A stretch of DNA of 64,000 nucleotides from a virus, in the IMG/VR virus record IMGVR_UViG_3300045999_009829. One strand, 5' to 3'. How positions within the stretch are numbered: the stretch's first letter is position 1; each line of letters starts with the position of its first letter. Of this stretch, positions 1 through 54,553 are shown piece after piece. A model generated the notes under the pieces. That model did no database searches. It was not told the origin of the DNA and was given only the letters and a program-made list of their open reading frames with translations. The position numbers and the translations under genes were made by a program.

Positions 1-1
1 G

Positions 2-349
2 CCCTGCGCAGATGGGAAGAACCATCATTGCTTTGTGATCAATCACGCTATCGAGCGAGACATTGCACAGTCTATCTATGTCGACGTATAGACCGCCCTC
101 CTCATACAGCTTAATCAGCCTCCACACGTCTGACTTTACAACTGGATGGCAGTGCTTCAATCTAGAGTAGTCACTCGCGTCGAGCTTAACCCTGAGGTAG
201 TCATCAAGGTCGCCATCGTCGCTTATCTCTACAGTCCAGTTGGGCGACAGCTGCACCAGTCTGCCTATGCAGTTCCTGACAAACCTCGACTCAGACTGCA
301 GTAGGTCCTTCGTCTTCCATGATATATGTATCTTGCGAGGTATGATCAC
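2..349 (-). CDS. Glycosyltransferase, GT32/OCH1-like DXD family (partial, runs off the window start)
   Basis: Not in the ORF track; manual translation from GTG at 349 gives MIIPRKIHISWK...KSDVWRLIKLYEEGGLYVDID, with the IPxxIH, SDxxR and GGxYxDxD motifs. GTGA overlap with the upstream stop. Confidence 0.8.
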   Translation of the reverse strand, partial: MIIPRKIHISWKTKDLLQSESRFVRNCIGRLVQLSPNWTVEISDDGDLDDYLRVKLDASDYSRLKHCHPVVKSDVWRLIKLYEEGGLYVDIDRLCNVSLDSVIDHKAMMVLPICAG

Positions 350-1062
350 GGGAACACCAGCTTGAACTCTAACCTCGACTTCTCGTTAGGCATGTCGAGT
401 GGGTGTGGCATCTCTACATCTCTATAGAACACGTTCTGTGCGGACGAGAACGTAAGCTCCAGACAGCTCGGTATGAACTGCTCTGGCGTCTCGATGTACG
501 AGTTGTTGTTTGCGTGCACGTGAACTAGCTTCTGGTCGACCTTGCCGATGAAGTTTGCTATCTGGTCAAACTTGTCGGGCTGATTTACGTCGTGGAACTC
601 TATGACCATGCCAGTAAATCTTCGCGTGTTCGCTATAAGCGAGTCTAGCAGACCGTATTCGTCTCCCTCTATGTCGCACTTCAAGAACACGTTGCTGCCA
701 TGCAAGATGTCATCTATAGATCCTTTGACGTTCTGCTTGTGTAGGCGCTTGCCGTCTATGAAGAAGGATTCGTCGACCTTTGCTTGCTCGTCGTAGGCAT
801 CCATCTGGCACGGGTTCAACCGAAAGAAGTCTACCTCGTACGAGTTGTCGGGCCCGATGCCCAAGCTCAGCAGTCTGGTGGTTGCAATCACGTCGCTGTA
901 GTTGACCAGATACCCGCCGTCGTAGTCCTTGCCCAGACGAACAAGCTCCCTGCAGTAGAAGGGCTTCAGGATCCTGGGTAGCTTCATGGTGTTCATGTCA
1001 ATGCGCTCTCTTGATAAACGCAGATTGGTAGCCGTTGAGCTGGTGAAACTCGTATAGGTCAT
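346..1062 (-). CDS. FkbM-like SAM-dependent methyltransferase
   Basis: RLGKDYDGGY, LSLGIG, LKCDIEGDEY and IEFH motifs; the true start may be ATG at 996. Confidence 0.7.
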   Translation of the reverse strand: MTYTSFTSSTATNLRLSRERIDMNTMKLPRILKPFYCRELVRLGKDYDGGYLVNYSDVIATTRLLSLGIGPDNSYEVDFFRLNPCQMDAYDEQAKVDESFFIDGKRLHKQNVKGSIDDILHGSNVFLKCDIEGDEYGLLDSLIANTRRFTGMVIEFHDVNQPDKFDQIANFIGKVDQKLVHVHANNNSYIETPEQFIPSCLELTFSSAQNVFYRDVEMPHPLDMPNEKSRLEFKLVFP

Positions 1063-1973
1063 ACGGCACTTGCAATTTCTTTCAGTTGTTCCCTCGTGAA
1101 CTTCATGGCGCCGTCGTTGAGCCTGTCGGCAAACTCACAGTCGGGCCCGCCTATGCGGATGGGGTTGTAAGCTACCTGAACGGACTTATTCCTGTAGAAC
1201 TTGAAGTGCTTGGGATAACTTACGTTGACTTCGAACGTGGACCCCATTATAATGGTTCCTGACCGATTAAACGATCTAGCCATGTGTTGACCAACTGAGT
1301 CGACACCGACAAAGTAGTCACACTGAGATATCATAGCCATGTAGAACCTGAGGTCTGCATTCATGCCCTTACCATTGAGCATGAAGTTGTCCTTGGGGTG
1401 AATGTAGTCGTTGGGTCCGAAGTACAGGACTGCAGCCTTCTCCGATAGCATCCTGCCCAATTCAAGTGCATCGTCGACGTCGAGGCTCCTGCTTGTGGTG
1501 TCCGTAGGTCTGCCGTTGACTACTTGAATGCCGGACCCATAGGGCTGAAACACAACGAACTTGCTCTTGCCCTTGGCTCGCCTGGCTTCCTCGATGAGCT
1601 TTTGTGCGGTCGCGACCTCGTTCGAGTGTAGGTATAGTTTAGGCTGAGCTAGATCCGAGTGGTCATCGGTCTGGTTGATCTCTTCGTCGAACGCCTCCAC
1701 CAGGGACTTCCTCTGGTTGTAGTAGCTCCACCGGTGGTAGGGCTCTGGGGCTTTGAGCTCCCTGTCCTTGATCACCAGGTCAAAGATGCCCTTCTGACCT
1801 ATGCCGTATGTTCTGGGCTGCAGGAGCGGGTGGTTCCAGTACAGGTTCTCCCACCCATGCACGATGACCTTGAAGTCATCATTGGGATTGAGTCTTGCAT
1901 ACTTCTCTAGAGCGGGAATAGCCGTTATGACTCTCCCCGCCCCACCACTGATCATGAACGCGGTGCTTCTCAT
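1059..1973 (-). CDS. GT9-like (ADP-heptose heptosyltransferase-like) GT-B glycosyltransferase
   Basis: N-terminal GGAGRVITAIPAL, FQPYGS, and CDYFVGVDSVGQHMA (GT9-type DSxxxHxA motif); start set at 1973 by the ATGA overlap. Confidence 0.7.
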   Translation of the reverse strand: MRSTAFMISGGAGRVITAIPALEKYARLNPNDDFKVIVHGWENLYWNHPLLQPRTYGIGQKGIFDLVIKDRELKAPEPYHRWSYYNQRKSLVEAFDEEINQTDDHSDLAQPKLYLHSNEVATAQKLIEEARRAKGKSKFVVFQPYGSGIQVVNGRPTDTTSRSLDVDDALELGRMLSEKAAVLYFGPNDYIHPKDNFMLNGKGMNADLRFYMAMISQCDYFVGVDSVGQHMARSFNRSGTIIMGSTFEVNVSYPKHFKFYRNKSVQVAYNPIRIGGPDCEFADRLNDGAMKFTREQLKEIASAV

Positions 1974-2428
1974 CCCCGCTTGAGGTCCTGCGTCATGGGG
2001 TTGTACTCCTTGAACCACTCCATGAACTCCTTGTCACCGAGATAGTTCCACACGCCGTCAAGCTGGTAGATGACTGGCATGCCGGTCTCAAGCCAGTTCT
2101 GCACGAGCCAGGACAGGTACTTGGACTCCATCTTCTGACCGCACTCGACGACTCGCAGCATGGGCTTGCTCTTGTTGGGACCCCAGCCCTCTATGTTGAC
2201 AAGCACCTTGGACTCTGATGGCTTCATCCACTCGGGCACTATGTTTTGGATATATCCACACCAGTAGTCCCTGCACGACTGAGGTCTGTGCTCGTGAATG
2301 GTGCAGTTCTTTCCTAGGTAGTGACAGGGTCTCCCGGGGAACTTGCGGCGACCGAACACCTCGTACTGAAGCCACTTGCAGCACTCGTTGCAGTCGCCGC
2401 AAGACCTCTCAACTTTCGGTTCCATCAC
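1970..2428 (-). CDS. CxxCxxCC (YkgJ-like) zinc/iron-chelating protein
   Basis: RSCGDCNECC...PCHYL...CTIHEHRPQSCRDYWC. Confidence 0.7.
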   Translation of the reverse strand: MMEPKVERSCGDCNECCKWLQYEVFGRRKFPGRPCHYLGKNCTIHEHRPQSCRDYWCGYIQNIVPEWMKPSESKVLVNIEGWGPNKSKPMLRVVECGQKMESKYLSWLVQNWLETGMPVIYQLDGVWNYLGDKEFMEWFKEYNPMTQDLKRG

Positions 2429-3056
2429 TTCTCCATCTATTCAATACCGAATCCATCTGGTCCATGGTCGCCTGCAGGCTCACCCCCGTGCCCAGGTGCA
2501 CGAAGTAGTATCTCTGCCAGTCTTCCCACGTGATGCCGTTGTACTTGAGTCCGAACCTGGCTAGGTTCTCTGAGAAGGCAAACTCGTCGACGTGACTCTT
2601 CTTGTGGAGCAGGAACGACTTTGCCTCTGTGGCGGTGTAGTCAAGCGGTCGGAACAGGTCGTGGGTGTGGCGACAAGCGATGACTGCATTGGTGGCGATG
2701 CCTACGTTCCTGCCGTCCCTCTTGAAGTATATATTGCGCTCTGTGTCGAAGAACTCACTGGCGTGGAAGTTGTCGTTGAACCCCACGTGGTATGGATGAC
2801 AGAGAGTAGTGAAGTCGGGAAACTTGGCGTGGATCAAGATGTCGACGTCGAGCAGTAGGTTCCAGTCATAGCCAGCGCCGTCCCTGTAGACCTGGAGCTT
2901 CTCATACAGGATGTTCCAGTCGGGATACTTCCTCTGCGTGATCAAGTTCAGGTCGGCGCCTATTCGATCTGCATAGCGCTTGATCCGAGGATAGGTCACC
3001 GACCAGACTTCTGGCAGGTAGTTACCGATGTTGACTACGTGGATGCACTTGCTCAT
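2409..3056 (-). CDS. GT-A fold glycosyltransferase (GT34-like)
   Basis: YADRIGAD, EKLQVY, LLLDVDILI (DxD) and terminal FVHLG. Confidence 0.55.
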   Translation of the reverse strand: MSKCIHVVNIGNYLPEVWSVTYPRIKRYADRIGADLNLITQRKYPDWNILYEKLQVYRDGAGYDWNLLLDVDILIHAKFPDFTTLCHPYHVGFNDNFHASEFFDTERNIYFKRDGRNVGIATNAVIACRHTHDLFRPLDYTATEAKSFLLHKKSHVDEFAFSENLARFGLKYNGITWEDWQRYYFVHLGTGVSLQATMDQMDSVLNRWRSDGTES

Positions 3057-3508
3057 AGATAGAGCGCCGAGAAGTCCTTGCCTGATGGATCCTTGGGTAG
3101 GTTGGTGCTCATGCCGTCGTCGAGCAGGGCTTGCAGAACTTGCTCTCTGGTGACATCACCCTTCCTTGCCATCTCGACCATCACGGCGACTGGCATGTGG
3201 TATATGTACGCGATGGCAAGTACTGTGGCGTGCAGGTTGTGCACTAGGAGACCCTTGTCCTCTTCCTTGCATACTCCGGCAAGCACCTGTCGAGCAGTCT
3301 TCCTGTACTTCATGGCTGGAAAGTGCGGCTGCATCTTGTGGAACCTATCTGGATCCTTGGGATCCTCCAGAACAAGAAGTGGCTCTGCCGCTTCCTCTTC
3401 CTGGCACCACTTCTCCAGATTGATAAGAGCTAGCATGATGCCCACGATATCGTCATCGTAGTCTGCATCTTGGAACCTGCAGTGGAGGTCCCTCAGTCTG
3501 TTACTCAT
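3053..3508 (-). CDS. Hypothetical protein
   Basis: 151 aa ORF with 4-nt overlaps on both sides within the operon. Confidence 0.6.
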   Translation of the reverse strand: MSNRLRDLHCRFQDADYDDDIVGIMLALINLEKWCQEEEAAEPLLVLEDPKDPDRFHKMQPHFPAMKYRKTARQVLAGVCKEEDKGLLVHNLHATVLAIAYIYHMPVAVMVEMARKGDVTREQVLQALLDDGMSTNLPKDPSGKDFSALYL

Positions 3509-4041
3509 CTTTCCTCCTTTCTGTCAATGTTCATAGCGACCACTAGCCTCTCAGCGATGGTCTTCGGCACCTCGTGGTAGAGGATGCCAGGGAACACCAG
3601 CAGTGTGCCGGTCTTTGGCGTCACCGTCAGTGTGTCCTCGAATATGATCGGCGCAGCGCCCTCTGCTATCTCCAGATAAGCGACTGCAGCAAAGTCGCTG
3701 GGGTAGTGATAGTGTCGGTCGGTGTGGTCGCCAGGTCCGTAGTGAGCGCCCCAGCAGTTGTAGCACATGAAGTCCAAGTCGACCTTGAAGTAGTCTCTGG
3801 ATATGAACTTCACACAGGATAGAGTCAAGTCGACCAGCGGCATGAAGTTCTGATTGAATATGTGGCTTGACCAACCGCTCACATATTTAGCCTTCACGTT
3901 GCTCTCCATGGAGATCGGGTACCGCTCTTGCTCCTGCTGTATGGCTAGCTTTGCGGCCTCTATGGCGTCCAAGTGAGAGCTTATATCTACCGTGAAGACC
4001 GGGAGGCGCTTCTCTACGGTAAGTACTTCGACTGTTGACAA
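3505..4041 (-). CDS. 2OG-Fe(II) oxygenase (TIGR02466-like)
   Basis: HYH, AVAYL, PKTGTLLVFPGILYHEV, RLVVAMN. Confidence 0.8.
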   Translation of the reverse strand: MSTVEVLTVEKRLPVFTVDISSHLDAIEAAKLAIQQEQERYPISMESNVKAKYVSGWSSHIFNQNFMPLVDLTLSCVKFISRDYFKVDLDFMCYNCWGAHYGPGDHTDRHYHYPSDFAAVAYLEIAEGAAPIIFEDTLTVTPKTGTLLVFPGILYHEVPKTIAERLVVAMNIDRKEER

Positions 4042-4697
4042 TTGTCCAATCCTCTGACTGTGGTTTCACCCCTGAGGTCGTACGCGTACACGTCGAACTG
4101 ACTCATGGGAAACAGCTCGGCTCTCACATACATGTCCAGGCTCTCGTAGATCCCATGCTTTATTGTGTACGAGACTAGAGACCTGGCGACCGCTGGATCT
4201 ATGGCGTATGCATGGGCTCTGCACAAGCTCCTGAGCCTGCCTCTCTGGTCACTGGCGTGCGGCGGAGTCGCGTAGACCGGCTGACCGCGAGTCTGCTCTA
4301 TAGAGCCGAGATATACTATGGAGTTGAACAGTCTGTGCATCAGATACGGCTTGACCATGATGGCGTCGTGTTCGAGGATGACTATCGGCTTATCGACCGT
4401 GAGGCACCGGCACCACAAGCTGTAGTGACTCATGAAGCATGCCACCTGCGCCCACGAGAGCTTCTCAGTGATCAGCTTTGGCCAAAGCAGGTGTGGAATT
4501 CCCTTTAGGTGCTCTGGAATCTCTGGTCTGCCGTTAACGCCGTCAAAGCCCTGCCATAGAGTGAACTTTTGGCCGACTGACTGAAGTGACTCGACACACC
4601 GAGCGGTGAGCTCTTCTGAAGTCTTGTTGCCCTTCAGGGTGATGACGTATGCCGAGTCGACGTCGTTGTCGTGGAAGTTGGCGTCAAGGCTCTTCAT
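4014..4697 (-). CDS. Glycosyltransferase family 25
   Basis: AYVITL, ACFMSHYSLW, ILEHDA, AHAYAI. Confidence 0.8.
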   Translation of the reverse strand: MKSLDANFHDNDVDSAYVITLKGNKTSEELTARCVESLQSVGQKFTLWQGFDGVNGRPEIPEHLKGIPHLLWPKLITEKLSWAQVACFMSHYSLWCRCLTVDKPIVILEHDAIMVKPYLMHRLFNSIVYLGSIEQTRGQPVYATPPHASDQRGRLRSLCRAHAYAIDPAVARSLVSYTIKHGIYESLDMYVRAELFPMSQFDVYAYDLRGETTVRGLDNCQQSKYLP

Positions 4698-4703
4698 GGC
4701 GAG

Positions 4704-5558
4704 TTACCTGCTGGTCAATAGCTCCGGATAGAAGGTCTCATAGAACCACCTGCAGTTGTGCAGGACCGAAGCGGAATCCTGTTCCGACATGTACTTAGGC
4801 CATGACGGACCGTGAGACTCGAGCCGCGGCTTGGTAACGTGACTGACAAGCGCCCTATAGACCGTGTCGTGCTCGTAGTACTCAGACTGCTTGATGTTGT
4901 TCATGTCGTGCTCATAGTTGTCCATGCCTAGCCACTGGTACATGGACCTAAGTGACCTGACTGGCTCCTTGCTGAAGTCTTCCCAACGAGCAATGAAGAA
5001 GTTGTTGGGCCTCTTCTGCATCCACTCGAACACGTGCCTGAGAAACATGAGAGGTCTACCCATGTTTCCGCCAACGTCGGTGCAGTAAAGCTCTACTCGC
5101 TTTGACACGGGTAGCATGTGGAAGGGATCATCTCTGGATCCCATATGTATGTGCGTGTTCTTGAACAGTAGCTTTTCGAACGACGCTATGATGTCTCTGA
5201 GGTCCCTGAGGCATACTATGAACTTGGGATCATCGTAGATCGTGAACAGGGTATTGATGTGTGTATCCCAAGTCCTAGACTTGCTGATGACCACGGGCTT
5301 GTCAGTCAGCGTGGAGAACCAGCCGTCAATGCCGCCGCGGATGAAGCCCTTGACCGCTTCAGCGGCGGTGTCCTGCGGCATGGCTATGAACTCTGACACC
5401 GACGTCGACTGAGCTTTGACGGCTTCGGTCACATAGGGTAGTGGACATGTTCCGGTGGTGTAAATCTTTGGGTTCTGCTGAAGGATATTCATCAGAACCG
5501 TAGATCCAGAACGAGGTAGTCCGATGCAGAAGTTCACTGCTTTCATGATATGGTGCAC
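4704..5558 (-). CDS. Sulfotransferase (PAPS-dependent)
   Basis: GLPRSGST 5'-PSB loop, RDLRDIIAS 3'-PB motif, RWEDF; start may be ATG at 5546. Confidence 0.85.
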   Translation of the reverse strand: MHHIMKAVNFCIGLPRSGSTVLMNILQQNPKIYTTGTCPLPYVTEAVKAQSTSVSEFIAMPQDTAAEAVKGFIRGGIDGWFSTLTDKPVVISKSRTWDTHINTLFTIYDDPKFIVCLRDLRDIIASFEKLLFKNTHIHMGSRDDPFHMLPVSKRVELYCTDVGGNMGRPLMFLRHVFEWMQKRPNNFFIARWEDFSKEPVRSLRSMYQWLGMDNYEHDMNNIKQSEYYEHDTVYRALVSHVTKPRLESHGPSWPKYMSEQDSASVLHNCRWFYETFYPELLTSR

Positions 5559-5578
5559 ACCCTTTCAAGTTTTAATTA

Positions 5579-6715
5579 TTAAGCAAATTTGCGAGCCAAA
5601 AATGAGCGTCCATCAACTGCAAATTCGGTCCACTGAGTTCCAGGTACCTGAACCGGCGAAGATCTATTTATTCTAGATATGTCTACATTGCCAAAATAAT
5701 TATCTCCCCAAGCCCATAAAGTTCCATCCGTCTTAAGTGCACCGCTTGACCTATATCCCCCTGAAATTCCTGACCACTGGTTACCAGGCACCTGAGTAGG
5801 AGCGCATACACTAATGGTAGTGTTATGACCGAGACGGCCGTCATCATTAAGGCCCCAAGACCACAGTGTTCCATCTGATTTACGAGCTAGACTAAATCTT
5901 GCACCAGCCGAGATGTCGGTCCATTGTGTGCCTGATATCTGTACGGGCGAAGATCTGTCAGTGGTATAACTGTTACCTAACTGCCCAGCAATGTTAAAGC
6001 CCCATGTCCACAGGGTCCCATCTGATTTACGCGCCATTGCATGGCCATCGACCTTATCACCAGAATAGTCGACCCACTGAGTACCCGGTATTTGAATTGG
6101 TGATGATCTTGCTATGACATTTCCTTGACCCAACTGTCCCCGCGTGTTATCACCCCAAACCCACAAGGTATTATCGCTTTTAAAAGCTGCAAAACCACCG
6201 GCGCTTCCGCGAAAAATCCTAGACCACTGAGTACCCGGTACTTGTACGGGAGACGATCTGTTTTCAGTATTGTTGATGCCCAACCGACCTGATGAGCCAG
6301 AACCCCATGTCCACAGGGTTCCATCTGATTTACGAGCTGCATTACTATTAACTGTACTAGAGATCTCAGCCCACTGAGTACCCGGTATTTGAATTGGTGA
6401 TGATCTTTGAACTACTGTATTATCGCCGATCTGACCAAAGGCACCACACCCCCAAATCCACAGTGTATTATCGGATTTACGAGCTGCACGTGCACTTCCT
6501 TTACCTTGGATTGCAGTCCACTGAGTACCAGGTATCTGTGTCGGGGATGATCTGTCATTTGTAATGCCAACACCTAATGCACCGGCGTAATTACAGCCCC
6601 AGGACCACAATTCCGTTACGTTACTATTGGAGCTACTATAAATTACCTGCCCATCAACTACCAGCTGATAGAGCTTGTTCAGCGTGAATACGTTTGTCTC
6701 TACGGTACCTGACAT
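5579..6715 (-). CDS. RCC1-repeat beta-propeller protein 1 (putative receptor-binding/tail-associated protein)
   Basis: Seven ~50 aa repeats ARKSDGTLWxWGxNxxGxLG...RSSPxQxPGTQW. Confidence 0.85.
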   Translation of the reverse strand: MSGTVETNVFTLNKLYQLVVDGQVIYSSSNSNVTELWSWGCNYAGALGVGITNDRSSPTQIPGTQWTAIQGKGSARAARKSDNTLWIWGCGAFGQIGDNTVVQRSSPIQIPGTQWAEISSTVNSNAARKSDGTLWTWGSGSSGRLGINNTENRSSPVQVPGTQWSRIFRGSAGGFAAFKSDNTLWVWGDNTRGQLGQGNVIARSSPIQIPGTQWVDYSGDKVDGHAMARKSDGTLWTWGFNIAGQLGNSYTTDRSSPVQISGTQWTDISAGARFSLARKSDGTLWSWGLNDDGRLGHNTTISVCAPTQVPGNQWSGISGGYRSSGALKTDGTLWAWGDNYFGNVDISRINRSSPVQVPGTQWTEFAVDGRSFLARKFA

Positions 6716-7893
6716 GTCCCTGAGTCCATCCTACTTCTGATCTCTTCTGACACGTCACCCCAGGATCCGTCTACTCTCTGCCGCAGCTCTAGGACGTTCG
6801 AACCGTACCAGGGCTTTCCCTCCCACACGAAGTAAGGAACCAGCGGAGTCAGTACGGCCAATCCCTTGCCCATCCCAGCGGCTAGGTGCGCCACCGACGT
6901 GCAGCTAGATACGACTAGATCCATCTCTCTCATAATGCAGTATGTGTCCAACCAGCTATTTATCCGATTGCCGATCCACGTGGATCCTCTGACCGCATGG
7001 CTCTCTATCTGGAAGTCGTAGAGGTCACCGACGCTAGCTAGTGACTCGAAGTTCTCCACCGGAACCTGCCTAAACTGCTCGTGCTCGAACTCTGGGTTGC
7101 CCGCCCACTTCACGCCGATCTTGAATCCAGGCTTGAACTTCAGCGTGGGATCCTCGACGTTGACTTGTATATAGTCAGGCCTGTCCACTTCCTCAAATGG
7201 ATCATCGAGTCTGAGCAGAGACGGGATCGCCATGGACGGAACCACGCAGTCGAACTGGTTAGGATCAAAGTTCTTTTCAGCTGACGCTAGGTGACCCATG
7301 CCACGGATCAAGTCTACCATCGACTTGGGGCAGTATACCACCAGAGAGTCAGACTCGCGCTCGAGCAGCGGAAGCCATCTGGCAAAGATCAGGCAGTCGC
7401 CGTGACCTCCCTCCATGTAGACCGCAGTCCTGTCTCTCTTGGTCGGAGCTCTGATCTTCCTTGGATCCACCCTGGCGTCTCTGTGGATGCTTCCGAACAC
7501 GTTGATCTCTCGACCGGTGTTCATCAGATCAAAGCCCTCCAGGAACTTGCCCTGTCTGACCAGGTGCCAGCCCAGGTTGAACTTGACTGCGGGAATGTCC
7601 TGCGGGAGTGACTGGAGGATCTGAAACGACTCGTCGTGCTTTCCCTGCCAGTTCAGGTACAGTGACAGGTCTATCTGAGCCATAGGATCGTCGGATCCGT
7701 AGTCGAGGTTTCTGATGAGCCCTTCGGCAAGGTCAGGTCGACGCAGCTGATAGAAGCACTTAGCCATGTTGAGCTTGAGCGCCCGCCTGACGGTGCTGTC
7801 TCTCTCGTGTACGTGCACGGCCGCCATGAACTCAAGTGAAGCTAGGTATTCTCTCTTGTCAAACAGCTCCTTTGCCTGGTCAAACGCTACCAT
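6700..7893 (-). CDS. TPR-containing GT9-like glycosyltransferase
   Basis: Helical TPR-like N-terminus; EGGHGDCLIFARW, IGVKWAGNP, MDLVVSSCTSVAHLAAGMG. Confidence 0.8.
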   Translation of the reverse strand: MVAFDQAKELFDKREYLASLEFMAAVHVHERDSTVRRALKLNMAKCFYQLRRPDLAEGLIRNLDYGSDDPMAQIDLSLYLNWQGKHDESFQILQSLPQDIPAVKFNLGWHLVRQGKFLEGFDLMNTGREINVFGSIHRDARVDPRKIRAPTKRDRTAVYMEGGHGDCLIFARWLPLLERESDSLVVYCPKSMVDLIRGMGHLASAEKNFDPNQFDCVVPSMAIPSLLRLDDPFEEVDRPDYIQVNVEDPTLKFKPGFKIGVKWAGNPEFEHEQFRQVPVENFESLASVGDLYDFQIESHAVRGSTWIGNRINSWLDTYCIMREMDLVVSSCTSVAHLAAGMGKGLAVLTPLVPYFVWEGKPWYGSNVLELRQRVDGSWGDVSEEIRSRMDSGTCQVP

Positions 7894-8470
7894 AGTTCAG
7901 ACCATCCTGCTGAGGGGACGTCTTTGTCCATGCCACTAGAGAGTACTTCGTGCCTCTGGTGACAGGCGTTGACCTGTGGATGTGCTGCAGACCACTGGGC
8001 CACACCAGCATGGATCCGACTGGTGACTTCTTGTTGGTAAAGCCGTACCTCGGAAACTCTAGCTCTCCGCCGTCGTGCTCGTCATTCAGCTTCACGGTGC
8101 CTGTCACCATAGAGTCATCCCAGTGCACCGGCAACTCCCTCTGCGTAGTCGGCGTGTACTTGATGATGAACGGCACCTTCCAGCCGCTGAACCACATGCT
8201 AGACGGCATCTTGTAGAAGTCCTCTAGTACCGGCTGAACGGTCTGCTTCCAGTGCATGCAGAATGACCTGTAGAGCTCCGGACTGATCTTGTCGATCCTG
8301 AGCTCCTGACCCGGGACTGGATCGTTGGGTCTGCTCTCGTACTGGTTGATGGAGTCAGCGGCTTCGGTCAGGATCCTGCAGAACTCTGGCTTCCAGAACT
8401 CTATCTGCAGGATGTCGGTCGCTACTTGCTCTACTTTAGGATTGAACACGACGTAGTCGGTGTAGCTCAT
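7880..8470 (-). CDS. 2OG-Fe(II) oxygenase (lysyl/prolyl hydroxylase-like)
   Basis: FIIKY, HWD, LNDEHDGGEL, HIHRSTPVTRGTKYSLV. Confidence 0.85.
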   Translation of the reverse strand: MSYTDYVVFNPKVEQVATDILQIEFWKPEFCRILTEAADSINQYESRPNDPVPGQELRIDKISPELYRSFCMHWKQTVQPVLEDFYKMPSSMWFSGWKVPFIIKYTPTTQRELPVHWDDSMVTGTVKLNDEHDGGELEFPRYGFTNKKSPVGSMLVWPSGLQHIHRSTPVTRGTKYSLVAWTKTSPQQDGLNYGSV

Positions 8471-8485
8471 GGTATAGGATATCCT

Positions 8486-9064
8486 TCACTTCTTCGTGTC
8501 GGCTGACATACCTATATATGGCCTTCCATCAAAGAGCCTGTCTCCGTACTGACCGCCTTCTTCCACAAAGTGCATAAACGCTTGGTACTGAGTCCTACCT
8601 AAGAACTCGTCACGCCAGTGATGGAGCTTCGTGCCCTTGTAGATCACCGCGTCGCCAGGATGGAGAGCCGCCATCTGAGGCACCTTCTTCTCTGGATCCA
8701 TGAGCCATATGGGCCAGAGCTCGTCGTAGTCTCCGCCGAAGCTTATGGTCATCGAGTGCTCGCATTCTGGCCTATCCACGTGGGGAAGCAACTCAGCGCC
8801 TCTCTCGTAGATCCTGGCGTAGGTGTATGTCGGTAGCAGTGGTCGACCGGTCGCTCTAGCTAGCATCGGAGCTGACATAAGCATGAACGTGTCGAGCGCT
8901 GGGTCTCCATACACGCAGTGACTCTTCCCGACCTGCGGATCGCCGTCTGTCATCTTACCCGCTATGCGCAGGGTGTTCATGTGCTCGCGAAAGAAGGCGG
9001 CCATAAAGTCAGGGATGAAGTTCCTGATGATCACGAAGCCCTCTTGCTCATACTCAGCGCTCAT
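8486..9064 (-). CDS. 2OG-Fe(II) oxygenase
   Basis: LLPTYTYARIY, HVDRPECE, PGDAVIYKG, HWR. Confidence 0.8.
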   Translation of the reverse strand: MSAEYEQEGFVIIRNFIPDFMAAFFREHMNTLRIAGKMTDGDPQVGKSHCVYGDPALDTFMLMSAPMLARATGRPLLPTYTYARIYERGAELLPHVDRPECEHSMTISFGGDYDELWPIWLMDPEKKVPQMAALHPGDAVIYKGTKLHHWRDEFLGRTQYQAFMHFVEEGGQYGDRLFDGRPYIGMSADTKK

Positions 9065-9620
9065 ACACTCTCCTGTCTGTTTCAATCCATGTCACTAGGC
9101 ACTTGCGGACACCTCGAGTAACCGGCGTCACTGCATGCTCGAACTCTGCATAGGACGGGAATATGATCATGTCTCCCGCCTTGGGGTTGAACGTGATCCC
9201 GAGCCTGCAGAAGTCTAGCTTGCCGCCCTCGTAGTCGTCGTTCAGATACCAGATCATAGTCCAGTCTCTGGGGACTACCCTGGTCAGCTTGTTGTTGACA
9301 AAGTCTTCCGAGTCATTGTGTGGGTCGTACTTGCCGCCAGGTCCATACGATAGCAGTTGAGGCTCCTCTACGGACTTAAGTGTAGTCCGGTGCTTTGGTG
9401 CAAGCAGAGTCTCGTGGATATGCTTTGCAGTCGACTCTATATCTATGAGTGTCTGCGGCGGGATCTTGTGTCGACCCGTGTTCCTATACTCTGCGTTGAC
9501 TGACTCGGTGGATCCGTGACCTGTTGAGGTCGGATAAGCCACCGAGTCAGTCAGAGCAAGCAGGTGCGTTACAATGTGTTGCGGGATAAAGTCTCGCTTT
9601 ATAGTCACATATTCAAGCAT
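9054..9620 (-). CDS. 2OG-Fe(II) oxygenase (prolyl 4-hydroxylase-like)
   Basis: YGPGGKYDPHND, YLNDDYEGG, FPS...HAVTPVTRGVR. Confidence 0.85.
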   Translation of the reverse strand: MLEYVTIKRDFIPQHIVTHLLALTDSVAYPTSTGHGSTESVNAEYRNTGRHKIPPQTLIDIESTAKHIHETLLAPKHRTTLKSVEEPQLLSYGPGGKYDPHNDSEDFVNNKLTRVVPRDWTMIWYLNDDYEGGKLDFCRLGITFNPKAGDMIIFPSYAEFEHAVTPVTRGVRKCLVTWIETDRRVYER

Positions 9621-9694
9621 GATGTAAGACCTTAAGTGTTTTAGTTACTTATTGGGAATGAGCTTAAGGTATCTCATCTTACTTGTTTCCTACG

Positions 9695-10867
9695 TTAAAC
9701 TGACTTGCGGGCCAGGGCATTTTGAACACCAGCTGATATATCAAGCCATTGGGTACCTGGTACCTGTACCGGTGAGGACCTAGTGATTCCGGTGTTGTCA
9801 CCGAGTTCTGCAAATCTATTTCTACCCCAAGACCATAAGGTCCCATCCGATTTACGCGCTAGGGTAAAAGGATCTAGTCCGACCCCACCAGCAGACACCT
9901 CAATCCAGGATGTACCTGGTATTTGTGTCGGTGATGATCTTAGGACTCTATCATTTAAACCAAGTTCTCCATTAAAGTTTCTACCCCAGACCCATAAGGT
10001 GTTATCGGACTTGCGAGCTACAGAAACATAGTTTTTTGTCGACACCTCAACCCATGAGGTACCTGGTACTTGTACCGGAGAGGACCTATCGACTCTATCA
10101 TTTAAACCAAGTTGCCCATTACCATTATATCCCCAGGACCATAGAGTCCCATCTGACTTGCGAGCTAAGACGGGACCGGTTCCCGCACCACCAGCAGGAG
10201 ACATTTCCACCCATGAGGTACCTGGTATTTGTGTCGGTGATGATCTTTGGACTCTATCATTTAAACCAAGCTGCCCGAGAACATTATACCCCCAAGACCA
10301 TAGAGTTCCATCTGTCTTTCTAGCTAGTGAGACTATACCCGAGGTCGCAATATCAGACCATGAGGTACCCGGTATTTGTGTCGGTGAGGACCTACTGTCC
10401 GCCGGATAGGCAGCTGAGGTATTAAGTCCAAGACGACCATTACCATTATACCCCCATGACCACAGAGTCCCATCTGACTTGCGAGCTAGGGAAAGGGACA
10501 TGCCAGCTGCTACCTCGACCCATGAGGTACCTGGTACCTGTATCGGAGAGGATCTATTGACCAACGTATTGTCACCGAGGATGCCAAATTGGTTATATCC
10601 CCATGACCACAGAGTCCTATCTGATTTTCTGGCTAGGGAATGGTTACCACCAGCTGAAATTTCCATCCATGAGATACCGGGTACTTGTATCGGAGAGGAC
10701 ACTTTGCCTGTAGTGTTGTTACCGAGTTGCCCACCATAACCTGTACCCCAAGCCCATAGTGAACCTGGATCATTTGCCGGACTGTAGCACACCCACTTGT
10801 TGGCGCTGATCTTCAGGTAGACCTCGTCGAGGCTCCATACCCCGCAGTCGGCATTAGTTACAGGCAC
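9695..10867 (-). CDS. RCC1-repeat beta-propeller protein 2
   Basis: Seven repeats ARKSDGTLWSWGxNxxGxLG...RSSPxQxPGTSW. Confidence 0.85.
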   Translation of the reverse strand: MPVTNADCGVWSLDEVYLKISANKWVCYSPANDPGSLWAWGTGYGGQLGNNTTGKVSSPIQVPGISWMEISAGGNHSLARKSDRTLWSWGYNQFGILGDNTLVNRSSPIQVPGTSWVEVAAGMSLSLARKSDGTLWSWGYNGNGRLGLNTSAAYPADSRSSPTQIPGTSWSDIATSGIVSLARKTDGTLWSWGYNVLGQLGLNDRVQRSSPTQIPGTSWVEMSPAGGAGTGPVLARKSDGTLWSWGYNGNGQLGLNDRVDRSSPVQVPGTSWVEVSTKNYVSVARKSDNTLWVWGRNFNGELGLNDRVLRSSPTQIPGTSWIEVSAGGVGLDPFTLARKSDGTLWSWGRNRFAELGDNTGITRSSPVQVPGTQWLDISAGVQNALARKSV

Positions 10868-10868
10868 A

Positions 10869-11591
10869 TCAGCCCCCTTCGATCACCTGGTATCTAGCCC
10901 CGAGTTCCGGACCGTAGTGCCTGACTTGGAGAGGAACTTCTTTGTCGACCATCTGTCCGTTCTCGAACACCTGTTCGGTCCTCGTTCCGATGGTCTCAAG
11001 CTTGAAGAACTCCTGCCAGGATCCCCATGGATCTGCGGCGTCGAATTGAAAGCCGTTGATCCTGTCGAGCTGCTTGCCCCTGAGTCCGGCGATGATGGCT
11101 TCCTTTGTCCTGAAGCTCTCGTGGTTGGCTACGATCCTCTCGGCCAGGACCTGCACGGTGACGCCGCGAACTGAAGCCTCCGTCTCGAGGACTGGCTTTA
11201 CTCCTGGATCGCCGGCAAGGTATGCCTTGGCCTGCTCGTACTTGTAGATGCCGGCGATGGATGCCGTGTCGTCGTACTTGCCCTGCAGGTAGACTCTTCG
11301 GAGTCCACGCTCTTCCTCGAACAGCTGCTCCCTGGCTCTGTCGACCTCTCTGTCAAGATTGGCCTTGACCGCGTCGGCAAACTCCTGCGGCGTGAGCTCC
11401 CAGCACTGATTCTCTGGGTTGGGCTCTGCATCCTCTGACACGGTACCATACCAGAAGCACGAGTTGATGCCGTCCTGCATTAGGATCTGCAGGCCGTCAA
11501 GGTCCGGATTCTTGGGTCCCTCCTTGGAGGTCTCCCTGTTGACTGAGATCCCAGTGATCGAGTCGACCTGAGTGAACTTGAAGTATCTCAT
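10869..11591 (-). CDS. Putative tail-fibre assembly/chaperone protein
   Basis: Lies between two RCC1 genes; YEQAKAY...LETEASVRGVTVQVLAERIVAN resembles phage tail-fibre assembly proteins. Confidence 0.45.
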   Translation of the reverse strand: MRYFKFTQVDSITGISVNRETSKEGPKNPDLDGLQILMQDGINSCFWYGTVSEDAEPNPENQCWELTPQEFADAVKANLDREVDRAREQLFEEERGLRRVYLQGKYDDTASIAGIYKYEQAKAYLAGDPGVKPVLETEASVRGVTVQVLAERIVANHESFRTKEAIIAGLRGKQLDRINGFQFDAADPWGSWQEFFKLETIGTRTEQVFENGQMVDKEVPLQVRHYGPELGARYQVIEGG

Positions 11592-11625
11592 TTGTACTGT
11601 GTCTCCATAGAGATCTTACTAATTA

Positions 11626-12771
11626 TTAGACAGCCTTCCGGGCTGCGGTGTGACTACCTGTAGCACCGACAGAGACTTCGGTCCACTGGGTACCTGGTAT
11701 CTGAATCGGTGATGATCTTTGGATGGCTGTATTATCACCTAGTCGACCAGACCCATTGCATCCCCATGTCCACAGGGTCCCGTCGGACTTCCGAGCTGCG
11801 GTGTGACAACCGCCACTAGAGACTTCGGTCCACTGGGTCCCTGGCACCTGAATTGGGGATGACCTTGAAAGGATGTTGCTGTTGTCACCTAGTTGACCAA
11901 ACCCATTGCATCCCCATGTCCACAGGGTCCCATCTGACTTCCGGGCAGCGGTGTGATAACCACCACTAGAGACTTCGGTCCACTGGGTCCCTGGCACCTG
12001 AATTGGAGATGACCTATTAATACTTGTATTGTCACCTAATCGGCCCCAATTATTAAAACCCCATGCCCACAGGGTCCCATCTGACTTCCGGGCTGCGGTG
12101 TGACAAAGACCACCCGAGACTTCGGTCCACTGAGTACCGGGTATTTGAACTGGTGATGACCTTGAAATGACTGTCCCATCACCCAGCTCAGCGGATCCAT
12201 TTAATCCCCATGCCCACAGGGTCCCATCTGACTTCCGGGCTACGGTGTGACGACCACCACTAGAGACTTCGGTCCACTGGGTCCCTGGCACCTGAATAGG
12301 TGATGACCTTGAAATGGCTGTACTGTCGCCTAGTCGACCAGCAACGTTGTCACCCCATGTCCACAGGGTCCCGTCGGACTTCCGGGCTGCGGTGTGACAA
12401 CCACCACTGGAGACTTCGGTCCACTGGGTCCCTGACACCTGAATTGGAGATGATCTGCTTACAAGGCCGATCAGATCTACACCGAGCTCACCGCTGCCGC
12501 TGCTACCCCATGTCCACAGAGTCCCATCTGACTTCCGGGCTGCGGTGTGATAACCGCCACTAGAGACTTCGGTCCATTGGGTCCCTGGCACCTGCACTGG
12601 TGATGACCTATTAACACTTGTATTGTCGCCTAGTCGGCCGAACGCGTTTAAACCCCATGTCCACAGGGTTCCCGGATCATTGTCTCGATTATAAATCACC
12701 CACCCGTTGTTCAGAATGGCGTCTCTTACATCCTGTAGTCTAAACGGCGCCTTAGTAGTGCTACCGCTCAT
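11626..12771 (-). CDS. RCC1-repeat beta-propeller protein 3
   Basis: Seven near-identical repeats QWTEVSSGGxHTAARKSDGTLWxWG. Confidence 0.85.
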   Translation of the reverse strand: MSGSTTKAPFRLQDVRDAILNNGWVIYNRDNDPGTLWTWGLNAFGRLGDNTSVNRSSPVQVPGTQWTEVSSGGYHTAARKSDGTLWTWGSSGSGELGVDLIGLVSRSSPIQVSGTQWTEVSSGGCHTAARKSDGTLWTWGDNVAGRLGDSTAISRSSPIQVPGTQWTEVSSGGRHTVARKSDGTLWAWGLNGSAELGDGTVISRSSPVQIPGTQWTEVSGGLCHTAARKSDGTLWAWGFNNWGRLGDNTSINRSSPIQVPGTQWTEVSSGGYHTAARKSDGTLWTWGCNGFGQLGDNSNILSRSSPIQVPGTQWTEVSSGGCHTAARKSDGTLWTWGCNGSGRLGDNTAIQRSSPIQIPGTQWTEVSVGATGSHTAARKAV

Positions 12772-14522
12772 CAGATGAGTCTCCCAGACACCGCAGCCTC
12801 AAGCCTATTGCCCACGTTGGCGTAGACTCTGATCTTGAAGCCGCTCGGTAGGTACTTGGCCTGCTCTAGGATCTCAACCGTCGCGTCGGCTGGAATGATC
12901 AGGTCATAGCAGTAGTAGCCCTGGATATTGTTGGAGCCATCAGTCCAGACCACACGAGCCTTGACGTCGTTGACTCCGTCGTCATTGCTCAATAGCACCG
13001 ACTGGATGACAGCGTTGCCGGACGCAGTGTAGAGGTCCGTAAACGTAGCGTCAGCAGTGATGTCCACGCCAGCCCCAAACAGGTTGGTGCTTGTCTGGGT
13101 CTCGTACGTGATCGTGGCGTGCAGAGGAGTGTTGTCCTGAACCTGGATGCTCAGCACGTCAGATGGCTGCATGACCTTGGGCATCTTCAAGAGCTCGACT
13201 GCAGACTCTACAGGCAGAGGAACTGTGGTAGCAAGGGATACGTTGGCATATGTTGCCCCGTTGATCTTAGCAGTCACGCCGCTGTTTGCCGTTCCGATGT
13301 TGGTCACGTGGATGGAGTACACGATGTACCTGAGACCAGCAGTTCCTGGAGCCGTGAATGCCGGTGACAGAGTCGAGTTAGCAGCAAAGCCGACCGAGGC
13401 GGTGAGACTGGTGTTGAACAGTCCGCTGCCACCGCTAGCTGCAACGTTGGCCCAATACACGCCCGTACCGTTTGATGACAGCACCTGACCTGATGTGCCA
13501 AACGTACCGTTTGCTTGGATTCCGGCGCCGTTGGAGATGATGAGCTCGCCGGTTGCAGATATAGTCAGGTTTGCCGTGACGTTGGCAGACCCAGAAATGA
13601 CCACATTGCCACCGAATGTCGAGGTGGTGTTGGATATTATAACGTTGGTGGCGGTATTACCGACTCGTATGTTAGTCAGTCCGAGGCTTGTGGTGCTAGT
13701 AGAGTTCGATATAAGGATGACAGAGTTTGAGTGCTGGGTGTTGACCGTGGTGTTACCGACAATCACGTTAGTCTGGTAGGTGTGCACTCCCGTGATGGTG
13801 TAGGCGGCAGAGGTGTTGACAAACATAGAGGAGTTGACGTGCACGCCAGTGGTGTTGACTACCGTACCGGTTCCCTGCACGACAAGCAAGGATCCTGTGC
13901 TGGTTATTGGCCCACCACTAAGTCCGTTGCCGCTGGCTACATTGGTGACGCCGGTAGCCGCAGGTGTGCTCCAGTAAATACCAGTTCCGTTCGAAGAGAG
14001 GACTTGCCCAGACGTGCCGACCGACCCGTTAGCCACCAGAGCTGCTGTGCTAAGGAAGGTGACATCGCCTGCAACACTCAGGGTGTTTGAAAGAACTGCT
14101 GCCCCGGTAACGGTGATGGTGTTAGAGAACGTGGAGTTGCCAGTGACTGAGACGGTGTTAGACGTGACTGAGACGGTGTTAGACGTGATTGTAAAGGTGT
14201 TTACGGCCGCCGTAATGACTTGAGTCGTGGTGTTTGCAGCTACAGAGAATAGGTTTGCTGTCGTGTACCTAAAGGCTGAATTTGAAAGTATGAGGAGAGA
14301 GCTATTGGTCGACACGTTCCCGCCGACCAGACCGCTTCCGGCATAGAGCACGTCTGCGCCGAAGTGGCCCTGGACATACCCGTTACCGACCGTCAGTGAG
14401 CCTCCAGTTGTAGAGTCGGTGGTGACGGTGTTCTGCGTCATCAAGTTAGCGAGTCGGTTAGTTACCGATAGCCAAGACCCGAATGTCTGCGTATTTGAAA
14501 CTGGTGTAACAGTTATTGTCAT
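12771..14522 (-). CDS. Tail fibre-like virion protein
   Basis: T/S/N/G/V-rich beta sequence, duplicated GTSGQVLSSNGTGxYW motif, N-terminal TFxxW attachment-type motif; follows the baseplate genes. Confidence 0.7.
   Translation of the reverse strand: MTITVTPVSNTQTFGSWLSVTNRLANLMTQNTVTTDSTTGGSLTVGNGYVQGHFGADVLYAGSGLVGGNVSTNSSLLILSNSAFRYTTANLFSVAANTTTQVITAAVNTFTITSNTVSVTSNTVSVTGNSTFSNTITVTGAAVLSNTLSVAGDVTFLSTAALVANGSVGTSGQVLSSNGTGIYWSTPAATGVTNVASGNGLSGGPITSTGSLLVVQGTGTVVNTTGVHVNSSMFVNTSAAYTITGVHTYQTNVIVGNTTVNTQHSNSVILISNSTSTTSLGLTNIRVGNTATNVIISNTTSTFGGNVVISGSANVTANLTISATGELIISNGAGIQANGTFGTSGQVLSSNGTGVYWANVAASGGSGLFNTSLTASVGFAANSTLSPAFTAPGTAGLRYIVYSIHVTNIGTANSGVTAKINGATYANVSLATTVPLPVESAVELLKMPKVMQPSDVLSIQVQDNTPLHATITYETQTSTNLFGAGVDITADATFTDLYTASGNAVIQSVLLSNDDGVNDVKARVVWTDGSNNIQGYYCYDLIIPADATVEILEQAKYLPSGFKIRVYANVGNRLEAAVSGRLI
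14143..14188. repeat. 21-bp in-frame tandem duplication (TSNTVSV x2)
   Basis: gtgactgagacggtgttagac repeated twice exactly. Confidence 0.9.
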
Positions 14523-14737
14523 CTCTGCCCTACTAGATCCTTGAGGAGACCCTTGATCTCTCTGAGTTCACTCTTGAGCTCGTCGTGCTCTCTGAGAACT
14601 CTGTCGATCGCCGCCTCCTTGGCCTTTCTTGTTTTATAGCTCTGCAGAGCCAAACTATCTGTATTTAGGATAGCCGATGAAGAGGTGTCTCGAACTAGAC
14701 TCTCTTCATCCTTGACCTTTAAGTACTGATTCATCAT
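14519..14737 (-). CDS. Small coiled-coil protein typical of T4-like virion modules
   Basis: LVRDxxSxAILNTD...ELREIKGLL. Confidence 0.65.
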   Translation of the reverse strand: MMNQYLKVKDEESLVRDTSSSAILNTDSLALQSYKTRKAKEAAIDRVLREHDELKSELREIKGLLKDLVGQR

Positions 14738-34361: not shown

Positions 34362-34369
34362 TATAAATA
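34362..34369 (+). promoter_or_regulatory. T4-type late promoter TATAAATA (gp4/gp2 operon)
   Basis: Exact TATAAATA upstream of gp4. Confidence 0.8.
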
Positions 34370-34381
34370 TTCCGACCTCGC

Positions 34382-34389
34382 TATTTATA
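34382..34389 (-). promoter_or_regulatory. T4-type late promoter TATAAATA (gp48/baseplate operon)
   Basis: tatttata on the + strand, upstream of gp48. Confidence 0.8.
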
Positions 34390-43776: not shown

Positions 43777-43784
43777 TATTTATA
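43777..43784 (-). promoter_or_regulatory. Late promoter TATAAATA upstream of gene 32
   Basis: tatttata on the + strand. Confidence 0.7.
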
Positions 43785-54072: not shown

Positions 54073-54553
54073 ATTGATCATGCTTGTCGGACTGCCTGGC
54101 ACCGGCAAGTCGACCTGGGTTCAGTCCCAGGGCTACTTTGAAAAGCCGGACTGGATGGTCCTATCGACCGACAACTTCATCGAATCTTGCATCATCGGCA
54201 CGAACGACACATACAGCGCTGTGTTTCCGTCCCTGATCAGACTGGCAGAAAGGAACCTGGTGGAGGGACTTAACTACGCCTGCAGGGCTCGGATGAACAT
54301 CGTGTGGGACCAGACCAACCTCTCTGCAGCCGGCCGAGCAAAGAAGCTCAAGCAGCTGCCCATCTGCTACAAGAAGACGGCCCGAGTGTTCCCCGTGCCG
54401 TCCAACCACTCTGAGTGGCTCAACTCGGAAGAGCGCTACGGTAAGGTCATCCCGCAGAACGTGCTTGACAGCATGCATGCCATCTTCGAGCAGCCCACCA
54501 TCTACGAGGGGTTTGATGAGATCATCACCCCGTACGTGTTCAGGGATCCCTGA
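54065..54553 (+). CDS. P-loop kinase (polynucleotide kinase-like, AAA_33)
   Basis: MLVGLPGTGKSTW, STD, VWDQTNL, EGFDEI. Confidence 0.8.
   Translation: MPELIMLVGLPGTGKSTWVQSQGYFEKPDWMVLSTDNFIESCIIGTNDTYSAVFPSLIRLAERNLVEGLNYACRARMNIVWDQTNLSAAGRAKKLKQLPICYKKTARVFPVPSNHSEWLNSEERYGKVIPQNVLDSMHAIFEQPTIYEGFDEIITPYVFRDP

Follow-up and report, generated by a model that had tools for sequence, protein, structure and literature searches.

The 64,000-nucleotide stretch analysed here (IMG/VR virus record IMGVR_UViG_3300045999_009829; the whole stretch is called the window in the following) stems from an uncultured T4-like myovirus with a G+C content of ~53% and carries at positions 1–14522 a cassette in which glycosyltransferase and other modifying-enzyme genes are interleaved with three RCC1 propeller genes and a fibre gene. 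Enzymes, RCC1 proteins and fibre form one conserved unit and no chance mixture, and within this unit RCC1 genes are paired far beyond chance with one glycosyltransferase, GT9L, which combines tetratricopeptide repeats (TPRs) with a compact GT9-fold domain. We read the unit as a system for the maturation of the tail-fibre module, in which soluble cytoplasmic enzymes would act on the RCC1 proteins, and possibly also on the fibre, prior to assembly, and put the probability of this reading at about 0.45.

GT9L (397 aa) is encoded at positions 6700–7893 on the minus strand, together with every gene between base 1 and the baseplate operon at 34.3 kb. Its family carries no annotation and comprises at least 544 IMG/VR loci; the viral linkage counts given in the following derive from the best 80 of these and the counts for prokaryotic genomes from 80 GTDB loci. 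An RCC1 gene is present on the same strand as GT9L in 75 of the 80 viral loci, in 58 within 300 bp and usually directly upstream, and in four of the five loci lacking RCC1 the GT9L gene lies at the 5' locus edge, where the upstream side is missing. A reverse scan starting from the RCC1 proteins (77 loci) recovered GT9L in 46, a sulfotransferase in 40 and a GT25 glycosyltransferase in 19 loci; seen from GT9L, GT25 occurs together with RCC1 and the GT9-like enzyme in 19 of the 80 viral loci and also in bacterial loci. Among 50,697 phage records, 27 are matched by the RCC1 propeller c of the window (11626–12771; PF25390, E 1e-79); those that carry GT9L as well are the three whose RCC1 proteins lie closest, S-SRM01, BUCT-ZZ01 and AG-345-E08. 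Propeller b is encoded at 9695–10867 (PF25390, E 4.9e-75) and the seven-blade propeller a at 5579–6715 (PF25390, E 3.5e-68), the start of the latter overlapping the end of the GT9L gene by 16 nt.

The pair is embedded in a larger conserved arrangement. The full gene order, i.e., fibre, RCC1, a 240-aa protein, RCC1, oxygenases, GT9L, RCC1, sulfotransferase, GT25, a 151-aa protein, a GT8-like protein, a second GT9-fold enzyme (GT9a) and a Cys-rich protein, recurs in 14 or more contigs, with amino acid identities of 30–60%. The same order is found in gp334–349 of S-SRM01, a freshwater cyanophage available in culture, right behind the baseplate wedge and long-tail-fibre genes; there gp334 is the fibre, and gp335, gp337 and gp344 are the RCC1 proteins. 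The S-SRM01 counterpart of the Ser/Thr-rich fibre protein of the window (12771–14522; no Pfam match) is annotated as long tail fibre distal subunit. Of 80 related loci, 60 have the conserved C-terminal domain of this fibre protein encoded upstream of RCC1, and in the window the RCC1c start and the fibre gene stop share one base. Moreover, a second phage lineage encodes a fibre, RCC1 proteins of 380 to 2870 aa with one to several propellers, GT9L, S-adenosylmethionine-dependent methyltransferases and a GT2-like protein, followed by a PF16778 tail-fibre assembly chaperone, more fibre genes, the terminase and a T4-type portal; the RCC1–GT9L pair therefore belongs to fibre modules. A role of GT9L itself as an ordinary fibre-assembly chaperone was rejected, because this lineage carries a separate PF16778 chaperone downstream. 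Only the T4-like lineage of the module has the 2-oxoglutarate (2OG) oxygenases.

The folds of GT9L and GT9a had to be judged by structure because profile searches failed to show them. For GT9L no Pfam or NCBIfam match was obtained and PF01075 was absent even at E 10; single-sequence searches of the PDB gave chance matches only for both enzymes, a GT9L profile retrieved matches for its TPR part only and a GT9a profile retrieved none. Residues 1–130 of GT9L consist of TPR repeats, as profile matches to TPR proteins show. The AlphaFold2 (AF2) model of GT9L, built from an alignment of 39 homologues, has a pLDDT of 91, and residues 151–397 matched the Veillonella GT9 enzyme 3TOV (Z 16.7), WaaF (16.0), TibC (15.4) and WaaC (15.3), the lowest value being 14.7, with a root mean square deviation of ~3 Å over 230–240 residues in a comparison that covered re-ranked Foldseek matches and was not exhaustive. 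With the whole chain, the top Foldseek matches were OGT and SPINDLY, both TPR-bearing protein O-glycosyltransferases; an assignment of GT9L to GT41 (OGT) was rejected, since its catalytic domain aligns best to GT9. An hhalign comparison of GT9L with four E. coli GT9 enzymes reached a probability of 54% for the C-terminal half only. After the first strand GT9L carries an invariant G-D (D166), as in G12-D13 of WaaC. The 39 aligned sequences share one invariant Cys only, and a four-Cys iron-finger is not evident among them. A complex prediction of GT9L with RCC1a, both supplied as alignments, gave a score of 0.17, with the mark set at 0.32, and weighs neither way. Some homologues of ~600 aa (P0056, P0100, P0111, P0112, P0115, P0118, P0119) have the GT9-like domain fused to a PF13469/PF00685 sulfotransferase, and from this fusion it can be argued that both share one substrate.

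GT9a (319 aa; 1059–2018, minus strand, probable start at 1973) belongs to a family with more than 1770 homologue clusters. Its AF2 model (pLDDT 94) was compared exhaustively with 48,161 PDB representatives, and the five best chains were all of GT9 type, i.e., 3TOV (Z 21.8), WaaF (20.2), TibC (19.6), WaaC (18.9) and an NDH subunit (17.7), with the next-best GT-B structure at Z 10.8. Neither PF01075 nor any other Pfam family matched GT9a even at E 10, and TIGR02201 reached just E 0.025; two homologues have a precomputed PF01075 match and several were named 'ADP-heptose:LPS heptosyltransferase' by JGI. In hhalign, GT9a and the E. coli GT9 enzymes align with a probability of 93%, and the invariant D225, G228 and H230, together with the nearly invariant S226, correspond to D261..H266 of WaaC. 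The first-pass annotation of this DNA had named two GT9-like proteins: the likeness holds for the fold, which in both models is closest to GT9 including WaaC/WaaF and TibC, while PF01075 is missing from both and each has lost a conserved residue. Judged from the models and alignments, both enzymes are thus of GT9 fold and neither is an orthodox GT9 member, the lost residue differing between the two. Of the two, GT9a is the best candidate for a heptosyltransferase, and we consider its use of ADP-heptose rather probable.

In the maturation system proposed here, the RCC1 propellers and possibly also the Ser/Thr-rich fibre would be made late in infection alongside the soluble cytoplasmic enzymes. 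GT9L might grip its protein substrate by the TPR arm and add the first sugar; the GT25, GT8-like and GT32-like enzymes and GT9a might then lengthen the glycan, with GT9a as the likeliest user of phage-made ADP-heptose, and the sulfotransferase and the FkbM-like methyltransferase might cap it. In the T4-like lineage, hydroxyl groups that serve as acceptor sites may be provided by the prolyl-hydroxylase-like oxygenases. Once decorated, the propellers would act on the virion in host recognition. We infer the protein acceptor from the conserved RCC1–GT9L adjacency and from two precedents: FlmG, in which a TPR domain holds the protein substrate, and TibC, a GT9-fold enzyme whose gene lies next to that of the adhesin it modifies. 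The missing lipid-linked and membrane machinery points in the same direction: no cassette protein contains a hydrophobic stretch of the membrane-helix type, and the cassette encodes no flippase, ligase or polymerase and neither Gtr-type nor Wzx/Wzy/WaaL machinery. The cassette is, furthermore, tightly coupled to late structural genes, and prolyl-hydroxylase-like oxygenases adjoin propellers in which every blade has an invariant SSPxQxPG-type motif containing X-Pro-Gly; both features favor a modification of the fibre module. Finally, the virion proteome of phAPEC6 (PMC7247149) contains ~40 kDa proteins under the name 'DNA condensation protein'; if our reading of the table is right, these are RCC1-like virion proteins, which would support a place of the propellers on the virion.

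Several points weigh against this reading. A receptor-binding gene linked to receptor-altering enzymes would yield the identical genomic pattern, and GT25, GT8, GT9 and GT32 are classically families of lipopolysaccharide (LPS) or glycan synthesis. The 380-aa propellers have no recognisable virion-attachment domain. In GT9L, an invariant C331 occupies the position of WaaC D261, T262 and H266 being kept as T332 and H336; ADP-heptose can therefore not be assigned to GT9L, and its use by this enzyme seems doubtful. GT9a has an invariant G13-R14, i.e., an arginine at the position of the catalytic D13 of WaaC; the two positions were equated by motif register, in a comparison of consensus lines in which the distance from G to P equals that of WaaC G12-D13...P19. 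Because of these lost GT9 residues, activity and donor of both enzymes are uncertain. Moreover, hldD–hldE of the window lie 40 kb from the cassette, and HldE was not found in five large RCC1/GT9L phage records, two of them complete; the positive controls of this search were detected.

The first of these points leads to an explanation in which transferases, sulfotransferase and heptose pathway remodel the host envelope, altering LPS, O-chain or another surface glycan to block superinfection or to keep progeny from sticking to debris, and in which the linkage to receptor-binding genes would result from co-evolving specificities of enzymes and receptor. In the literature (PMC7029224), the glycosyltransferases and rfaE that pelagimyophages and cyanomyophages carry in their 'host recognition cluster' are explained in this way. 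The GT25, GT8-like, GT9 and GT32 enzymes and the NoeE-like sulfotransferase of the cassette are carbohydrate or LPS-type enzymes, and LPS-core transferases are soluble or peripheral as well, so that missing membrane segments are compatible with it. However, it leaves unexplained that one TPR-bearing enzyme is tied to RCC1 across unrelated phages and Bdellovibrio chromosomes; the absence of the Gtr-type and Wzx/Wzy/WaaL machinery, an expression that appears tied to the late structural genes and the net acidic composition of GT9L (45 K+R vs 57 D+E) speak against it too. Furthermore, cyanobacterial LPS contains neither heptose nor Kdo (PMC4515613), the normal context of GT9 enzymes, yet cyanophages carry GT9a and heptose genes between their fibre genes, which fits a modification of the fibre module better. 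Taken together, remodelling of the host envelope is the most serious rival, though less probable than the maturation of the fibre module.

The question of the donor leads to the heptose genes. All four are encoded on the minus strand and their best NCBIfam matches stay below the curated cut-offs, i.e., hldD (54540–55355, 271 aa; TIGR02197, E 1.5e-65), hldE (55352–56521, 389 aa; NF008454, E 8.6e-91), gmhA (61597–62181; NF010546, E 1e-29) and hddA (62178–63242; NF049969, E 1e-44), which with this qualification bears out the earlier claim that the genome carries gmhA, hldE and hldD. In length, HldE and HldD of the window fall clearly short of their E. coli counterparts. With at least 600 loci, HldE is common in IMG/VR, and the following counts refer to the 80 viral loci most similar to the HldE of the window. 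GT9L and/or GT9a lie within 10 kb of hldE in 45 of them, often in a convergent arrangement with hldE–hldD running toward GT25, GT9L and RCC1, and in 24 hldE–hldD abuts an RCC1–GT9L operon that lacks GT9a. The expected co-occurrence of donor pathway and transferases is thus partly seen from the side of hldE and fails in the five RCC1/GT9L records lacking HldE. Two GT9a-bearing records, which are 83–88% complete, contain only a nucleotidyltransferase fragment for HldE; cultured phages with a full-length HldE are largely those with GT9a. The claim of the first-pass annotation that the phage makes its own heptose donor and builds a sulfated or methylated glycan on tail proteins is accordingly supported in part, by the conserved unit and by the proximity of GT9a to heptose genes, and weakened by the donor question of GT9L and by the records without HldE.

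These partly separate distributions might also mean that two systems lie side by side, with GT9L, the sulfotransferase and GT25 acting on RCC1, and GT9a and the ADP-heptose genes serving some other acceptor, which might be DNA, a small molecule or a host glycan. In that case the cassette would not represent one pathway and the propellers would stay unheptosylated. The partners of the two enzymes differ indeed, as GT9L is found with RCC1 in 75 of its 80 loci and GT9a in just 7 of the same 80. In P-SSM2 (locus L083, 10107–11909) and S-SSM7 (locus L084, 10244–13619), the region between tail-fibre genes contains a GT9a homologue and, after it, Nol-like carbamoyltransferases, a split hldE, gmhA and an epimerase gene; the 19-kb views of these loci contain no RCC1. 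The five large RCC1/GT9L records without HldE fit the separation equally. Another heptose branch of the window (gmhA, hddA and a GT4-like gene) lies at 61597–64000 among replication and nucleotide genes and may serve DNA and not the fibre cassette; heptosylated 5-hydroxymethylcytosine (5hmC) DNA is known in phages, where a kinase/phosphatase, a cytidylyltransferase and a GT-B enzyme are involved (bioRxiv 10.1101/2023.12.21.572611). Against a separation stand the 24 of 80 hldE loci in which hldE–hldD abuts the RCC1–GT9L operon in the absence of GT9a, and the fixed position of GT9a in the syntenic cassette of the T4-like lineage, so that we regard two separate systems as improbable.

Of the four 2OG-Fe(II) oxygenases named in the first-pass annotation, three exceed the Pfam cut-offs, i.e., 3505–4041 (PF13759, 36.5 bits), 7880–8470 (PF13640, 32.1 bits) and 9054–9620 (PF13640, 65.4 bits vs a cut-off of 27), and the fourth (8486–9085), for which no Pfam match was found, is a probable PhyH-like oxygenase based on phrog_2954 (E 3e-41) and on an HxD...H pattern recognised by eye; all are encoded on the minus strand. 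PHROG 2954 and 3531 label the family of this fourth protein 'ferrochelatase'; as its sequence looks to be of PhyH type (HxD...H), this name is probably wrong. The enzyme at 9054–9620 is prolyl-hydroxylase-like, its nearest solved relatives being P3H1, PiuC and the prolyl 4-hydroxylases (P4H) of Bacillus and PBCV-1 (E 2e-5 to 7e-4), and it has in addition a sub-threshold Tet_JBP match (E 6e-5). This Tet_JBP match, and the fact that phage glycosyltransferases act on 5hmC, heptose included, would fit a hypermodification in which the oxygenases hydroxylate and the transferases glycosylate bases of the phage DNA. However, the best matches of the oxygenase are protein prolyl hydroxylases, the transferases match GT9 and not the T4 beta-GT, and the cassette belongs to a fibre module tied to RCC1 and contains neither a C5-methyltransferase nor a hydroxymethylase, all of which renders hypermodification of DNA by the cassette highly improbable.

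The tie to the late genes, on which the proposed maturation of the fibre module partly depends, becomes visible in the layout of the window. The baseplate genes occupy 20.9–34.3 kb and the cassette follows at 1–14522 in an operon-like run, so that the co-directional arrangement of the cassette genes with three RCC1 genes and the fibre after the baseplate block, as described earlier, stands. Neighbouring cassette genes meet at junctions of -49 to +74 nt. The window contains five perfect TATAAATA motifs that resemble T4 late promoters (0.3 expected). Upstream of the cassette, perfect copies occur only at 34382 and 21167: two copies at 34362–34389 point toward one another in the gap from which the baseplate operon and a plus-strand block diverge, and the copy at 21167–21174 lies 278 nt upstream of the gene for a 2051-aa protein. 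Another copy is found at 43777–43784, and the one at 61594–61601 overlaps the end of gmhA. Inside the cassette, neither a T4-late-type nor a sigma-70-type promoter was found on the cassette strand; as the genes are moreover overlapping and co-directional, we infer late co-transcription.

The 2051-aa protein is a giant DUF4815 structural protein (14734–20889, minus strand; PF16075) and precedes a 72-aa virion protein (14519–14737, minus strand), the pair at 14519–20889 matching phrog_473 and phrog_358. A giant DUF4815 protein with a 72–77-aa ORF is a conserved pair common to the window and cyanomyoviruses; in BUCT-ZZ01 the giant protein (locus L081, 10560–17079) carries the annotation 'virulence associated protein'. 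The baseplate protein gp6 (26769–28592) has at most ~36% identity to any phage of the collection (Cr30, DLP_6, HTVC008M, phiM12 and cyanophages), and a megablast of the cassette region against phages gave no match; a search of IMG/VR for identical 40-mers was likewise negative.

The remaining cassette genes, all on the minus strand, comprise further enzymes and conserved proteins without assigned function. Five glycosyltransferases had been counted before; this number holds for the two GT9-fold enzymes, for a GT25 enzyme (4014–4697; PF01755, E 7.8e-12) and for a GT32-like DXD enzyme (2–349; PF04488, E 1.1e-10), the C-terminal part of which is lost at the window edge, and is less certain for the protein at 2409–3056, a possible GT8-like GT-A transferase that is to be taken as a lead only. 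The latter is syntenic in 10 loci and its Atlas neighbours are viral, with Glyco_transf_8 found in 25% of the members of one nearest cluster. The sulfotransferase (4704–5558) is confirmed as PAPS-type by PF13469 (E 3e-14), with a weak NoeE match, and the FkbM-like methyltransferase (346–1062) is retained as a weak assignment, as PF05050 gives 21.3 bits vs a cut-off of 22.7 and TIGR01444 E 0.006; an FkbM-like homologue is also located at the cassette end in locus L146. A NodZ-like fucosyltransferase occurs in S-SRM01, and together with the NoeE-like match and the carbamoyltransferases of P-SSM2 and S-SSM7 it makes up a recurring 'Nod-factor-style' set of sugar-decorating enzymes. The Cys-rich 152-aa protein (1970–2428; CxxCxxCC-like, phrog_9155, E 6e-29) is syntenic with GT9a and co-occurs in 8 of 80 and in 15 of 32 loci. 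The conserved 151-aa protein (3053–3508) is syntenic in 8 loci and without match in Pfam, PHROG and NCBIfam, and the conserved 240-aa protein between two RCC1 genes (10869–11591) is syntenic in 13 loci. The Atlas neighbours of the latter are named 'tail protein' (score 0.91–0.94; a lead only), and it is possibly a tail or fibre-assembly protein.

The RCC1–GT9L adjacency is not confined to viral records. It was found in 52 of the 80 prokaryote-genome loci, mainly in Bdellovibrionota including two complete chromosomes, with Saccharibacteria and other members of the Candidate Phyla Radiation (CPR), Planctomycetota and Woesearchaeota metagenome-assembled genomes (MAGs) as other carriers. Some of the MAG contigs with the pair are surely mis-binned phage. 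A 23.8-kb contig of a 'Chitinophagaceae MAG' (JBBAJN010000035.1, locus L197) contains the same cassette at 54–86% identity; with 73% identity to the phage, it is almost certainly a mis-binned close relative, or alternatively a hint to the host. In B. bacteriovorus Bd16 (CP168971.1, locus L249, 8001–16138) a GT9-like gene lies beside an array of RCC1 propeller genes, and in Bdellovibrio HCB337 (NZ_CP178621.1, locus L266) beside GT25. The minor pilin PilX2 of a Saccharibacteria member contains an RCC1 propeller (PMC11623550). As a tentative idea, less favored than the maturation of phage fibre modules itself, RCC1 and the TPR-bearing GT9-like enzyme, usually with sulfotransferase and GT25, might constitute an adhesin-maturation module of phages, Bdellovibrio-like predators and CPR/Saccharibacteria and DPANN episymbionts, all of them dependent on attachment to other cells, which would add a sulfated heptose-containing or other unusual glycan to the propeller blades.

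If this were true, prokaryotes and viruses would share a type of protein glycosylation that has not been described so far and that determines the specificity of attachment. If phage enzymes decorate the propellers, the host range of a large group of aquatic T4-like and other phages would be set by a virus-made glycan in addition to the protein sequence, which would change prediction and engineering of receptor-binding proteins. The 'LPS genes' of cyanophages and pelagiphages, annotated since 2005, would receive a new interpretation and GT9-type enzymes a third role next to LPS-core synthesis and autotransporter heptosylation, and a shared role open to testing would emerge for the RCC1 propellers found in phages, predatory bacteria and episymbionts. 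With S-SRM01 on Synechococcus sp. KCZYC6 a cultured carrier exists, which makes the question directly testable. It is already known that glycosyltransferases and rfaE occur among the fibre genes of marine T4-like phages, and there are precedents for protein heptosylation, for TPR-guided protein glycosylation and for glycosylated phage virions. New are the oxygenase-rich T4-like variant, the two GT9-like families with distinct partners, their residue deviations from GT9 and the cultured carrier. In the literature searched we found no description of the pairing of RCC1 with a TPR-bearing GT9-like enzyme, of its spread to predatory or episymbiotic prokaryotes or of a link to hldE–hldD; the term 'RCC1' in a paper on an Ostreococcus virus refers to culture-collection numbers and not to the domain.

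Several known systems resemble the cassette in part. Capsid and tail proteins of mycobacteriophages and the capsid of the chlorovirus PBCV-1 carry glycans made by virus-encoded soluble glycosyltransferases and methyltransferases, the genes of which lie beside structural genes; these systems use other enzyme families, have other targets and contain no RCC1 proteins. In collagen-type modification, prolyl or lysyl hydroxylases act together with a GT25 galactosyltransferase, and in the cassette P4H-like oxygenases likewise lie near GT25. However, collagen repeats are missing here, and a hydroxylation of the propellers would be a supposition drawn from this likeness. OGT and SPINDLY are similar in their whole-chain architecture, whereas the catalytic domain of GT9L is of the GT9 and not of the GT41 type. 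Regarding its location, the cassette fits the kind of host recognition cluster described for marine phages, as it follows the baseplate genes and combines a fibre with LPS-type transferases. That cluster is a hypervariable post-baseplate region of tail-fibre genes, glycosyltransferases, 2OG oxygenases and rfaE/hldE (PMC7029224). Publications on the cluster and on cyanophages read its enzymes as modifiers of the host O-chain, and RCC1 is unmentioned in PMC7029224.

The two closest parallels act on proteins. FlmG, the flagellin O-glycosyltransferase of Caulobacter crescentus, combines, like GT9L, TPRs with a compact C-terminal GT-B domain, a likeness based on a comparison by description only. 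It was shown that the TPR domain of FlmG binds the flagellin substrates and is needed for their glycosylation, and that the enzyme is soluble, acts before export and assembly and uses pseudaminic acid (PMC7591256). In the TibC/TibA and Aah/AIDA-I systems, in which bacterial heptosyltransferases act on autotransporters (PDB 4RAP, 4RB4), the gene of a soluble cytoplasmic GT9-fold enzyme adjoins that of a beta-rich adhesin, which is glycosylated prior to export. TibC differs from the phage enzymes in sequence (~10–12% identity), GT9L adds a TPR arm, and the predicted substrate is a propeller and not a beta-helix. In structure, however, GT9L (Z 15.4) and GT9a (Z 19.6) both have TibC among their best matches, WaaF and the Veillonella GT9 enzyme being slightly better, and as in the TibC and Aah systems the genome of the window has genes of the ADP-heptose pathway. 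Moreover, the GT9L gene adjoins RCC1 genes in 75 of 80 viral and in 52 of 80 genome loci, just as the TibC gene adjoins that of its adhesin, and this adjacency suggests that the propellers might be to GT9L what the adhesin is to TibC.

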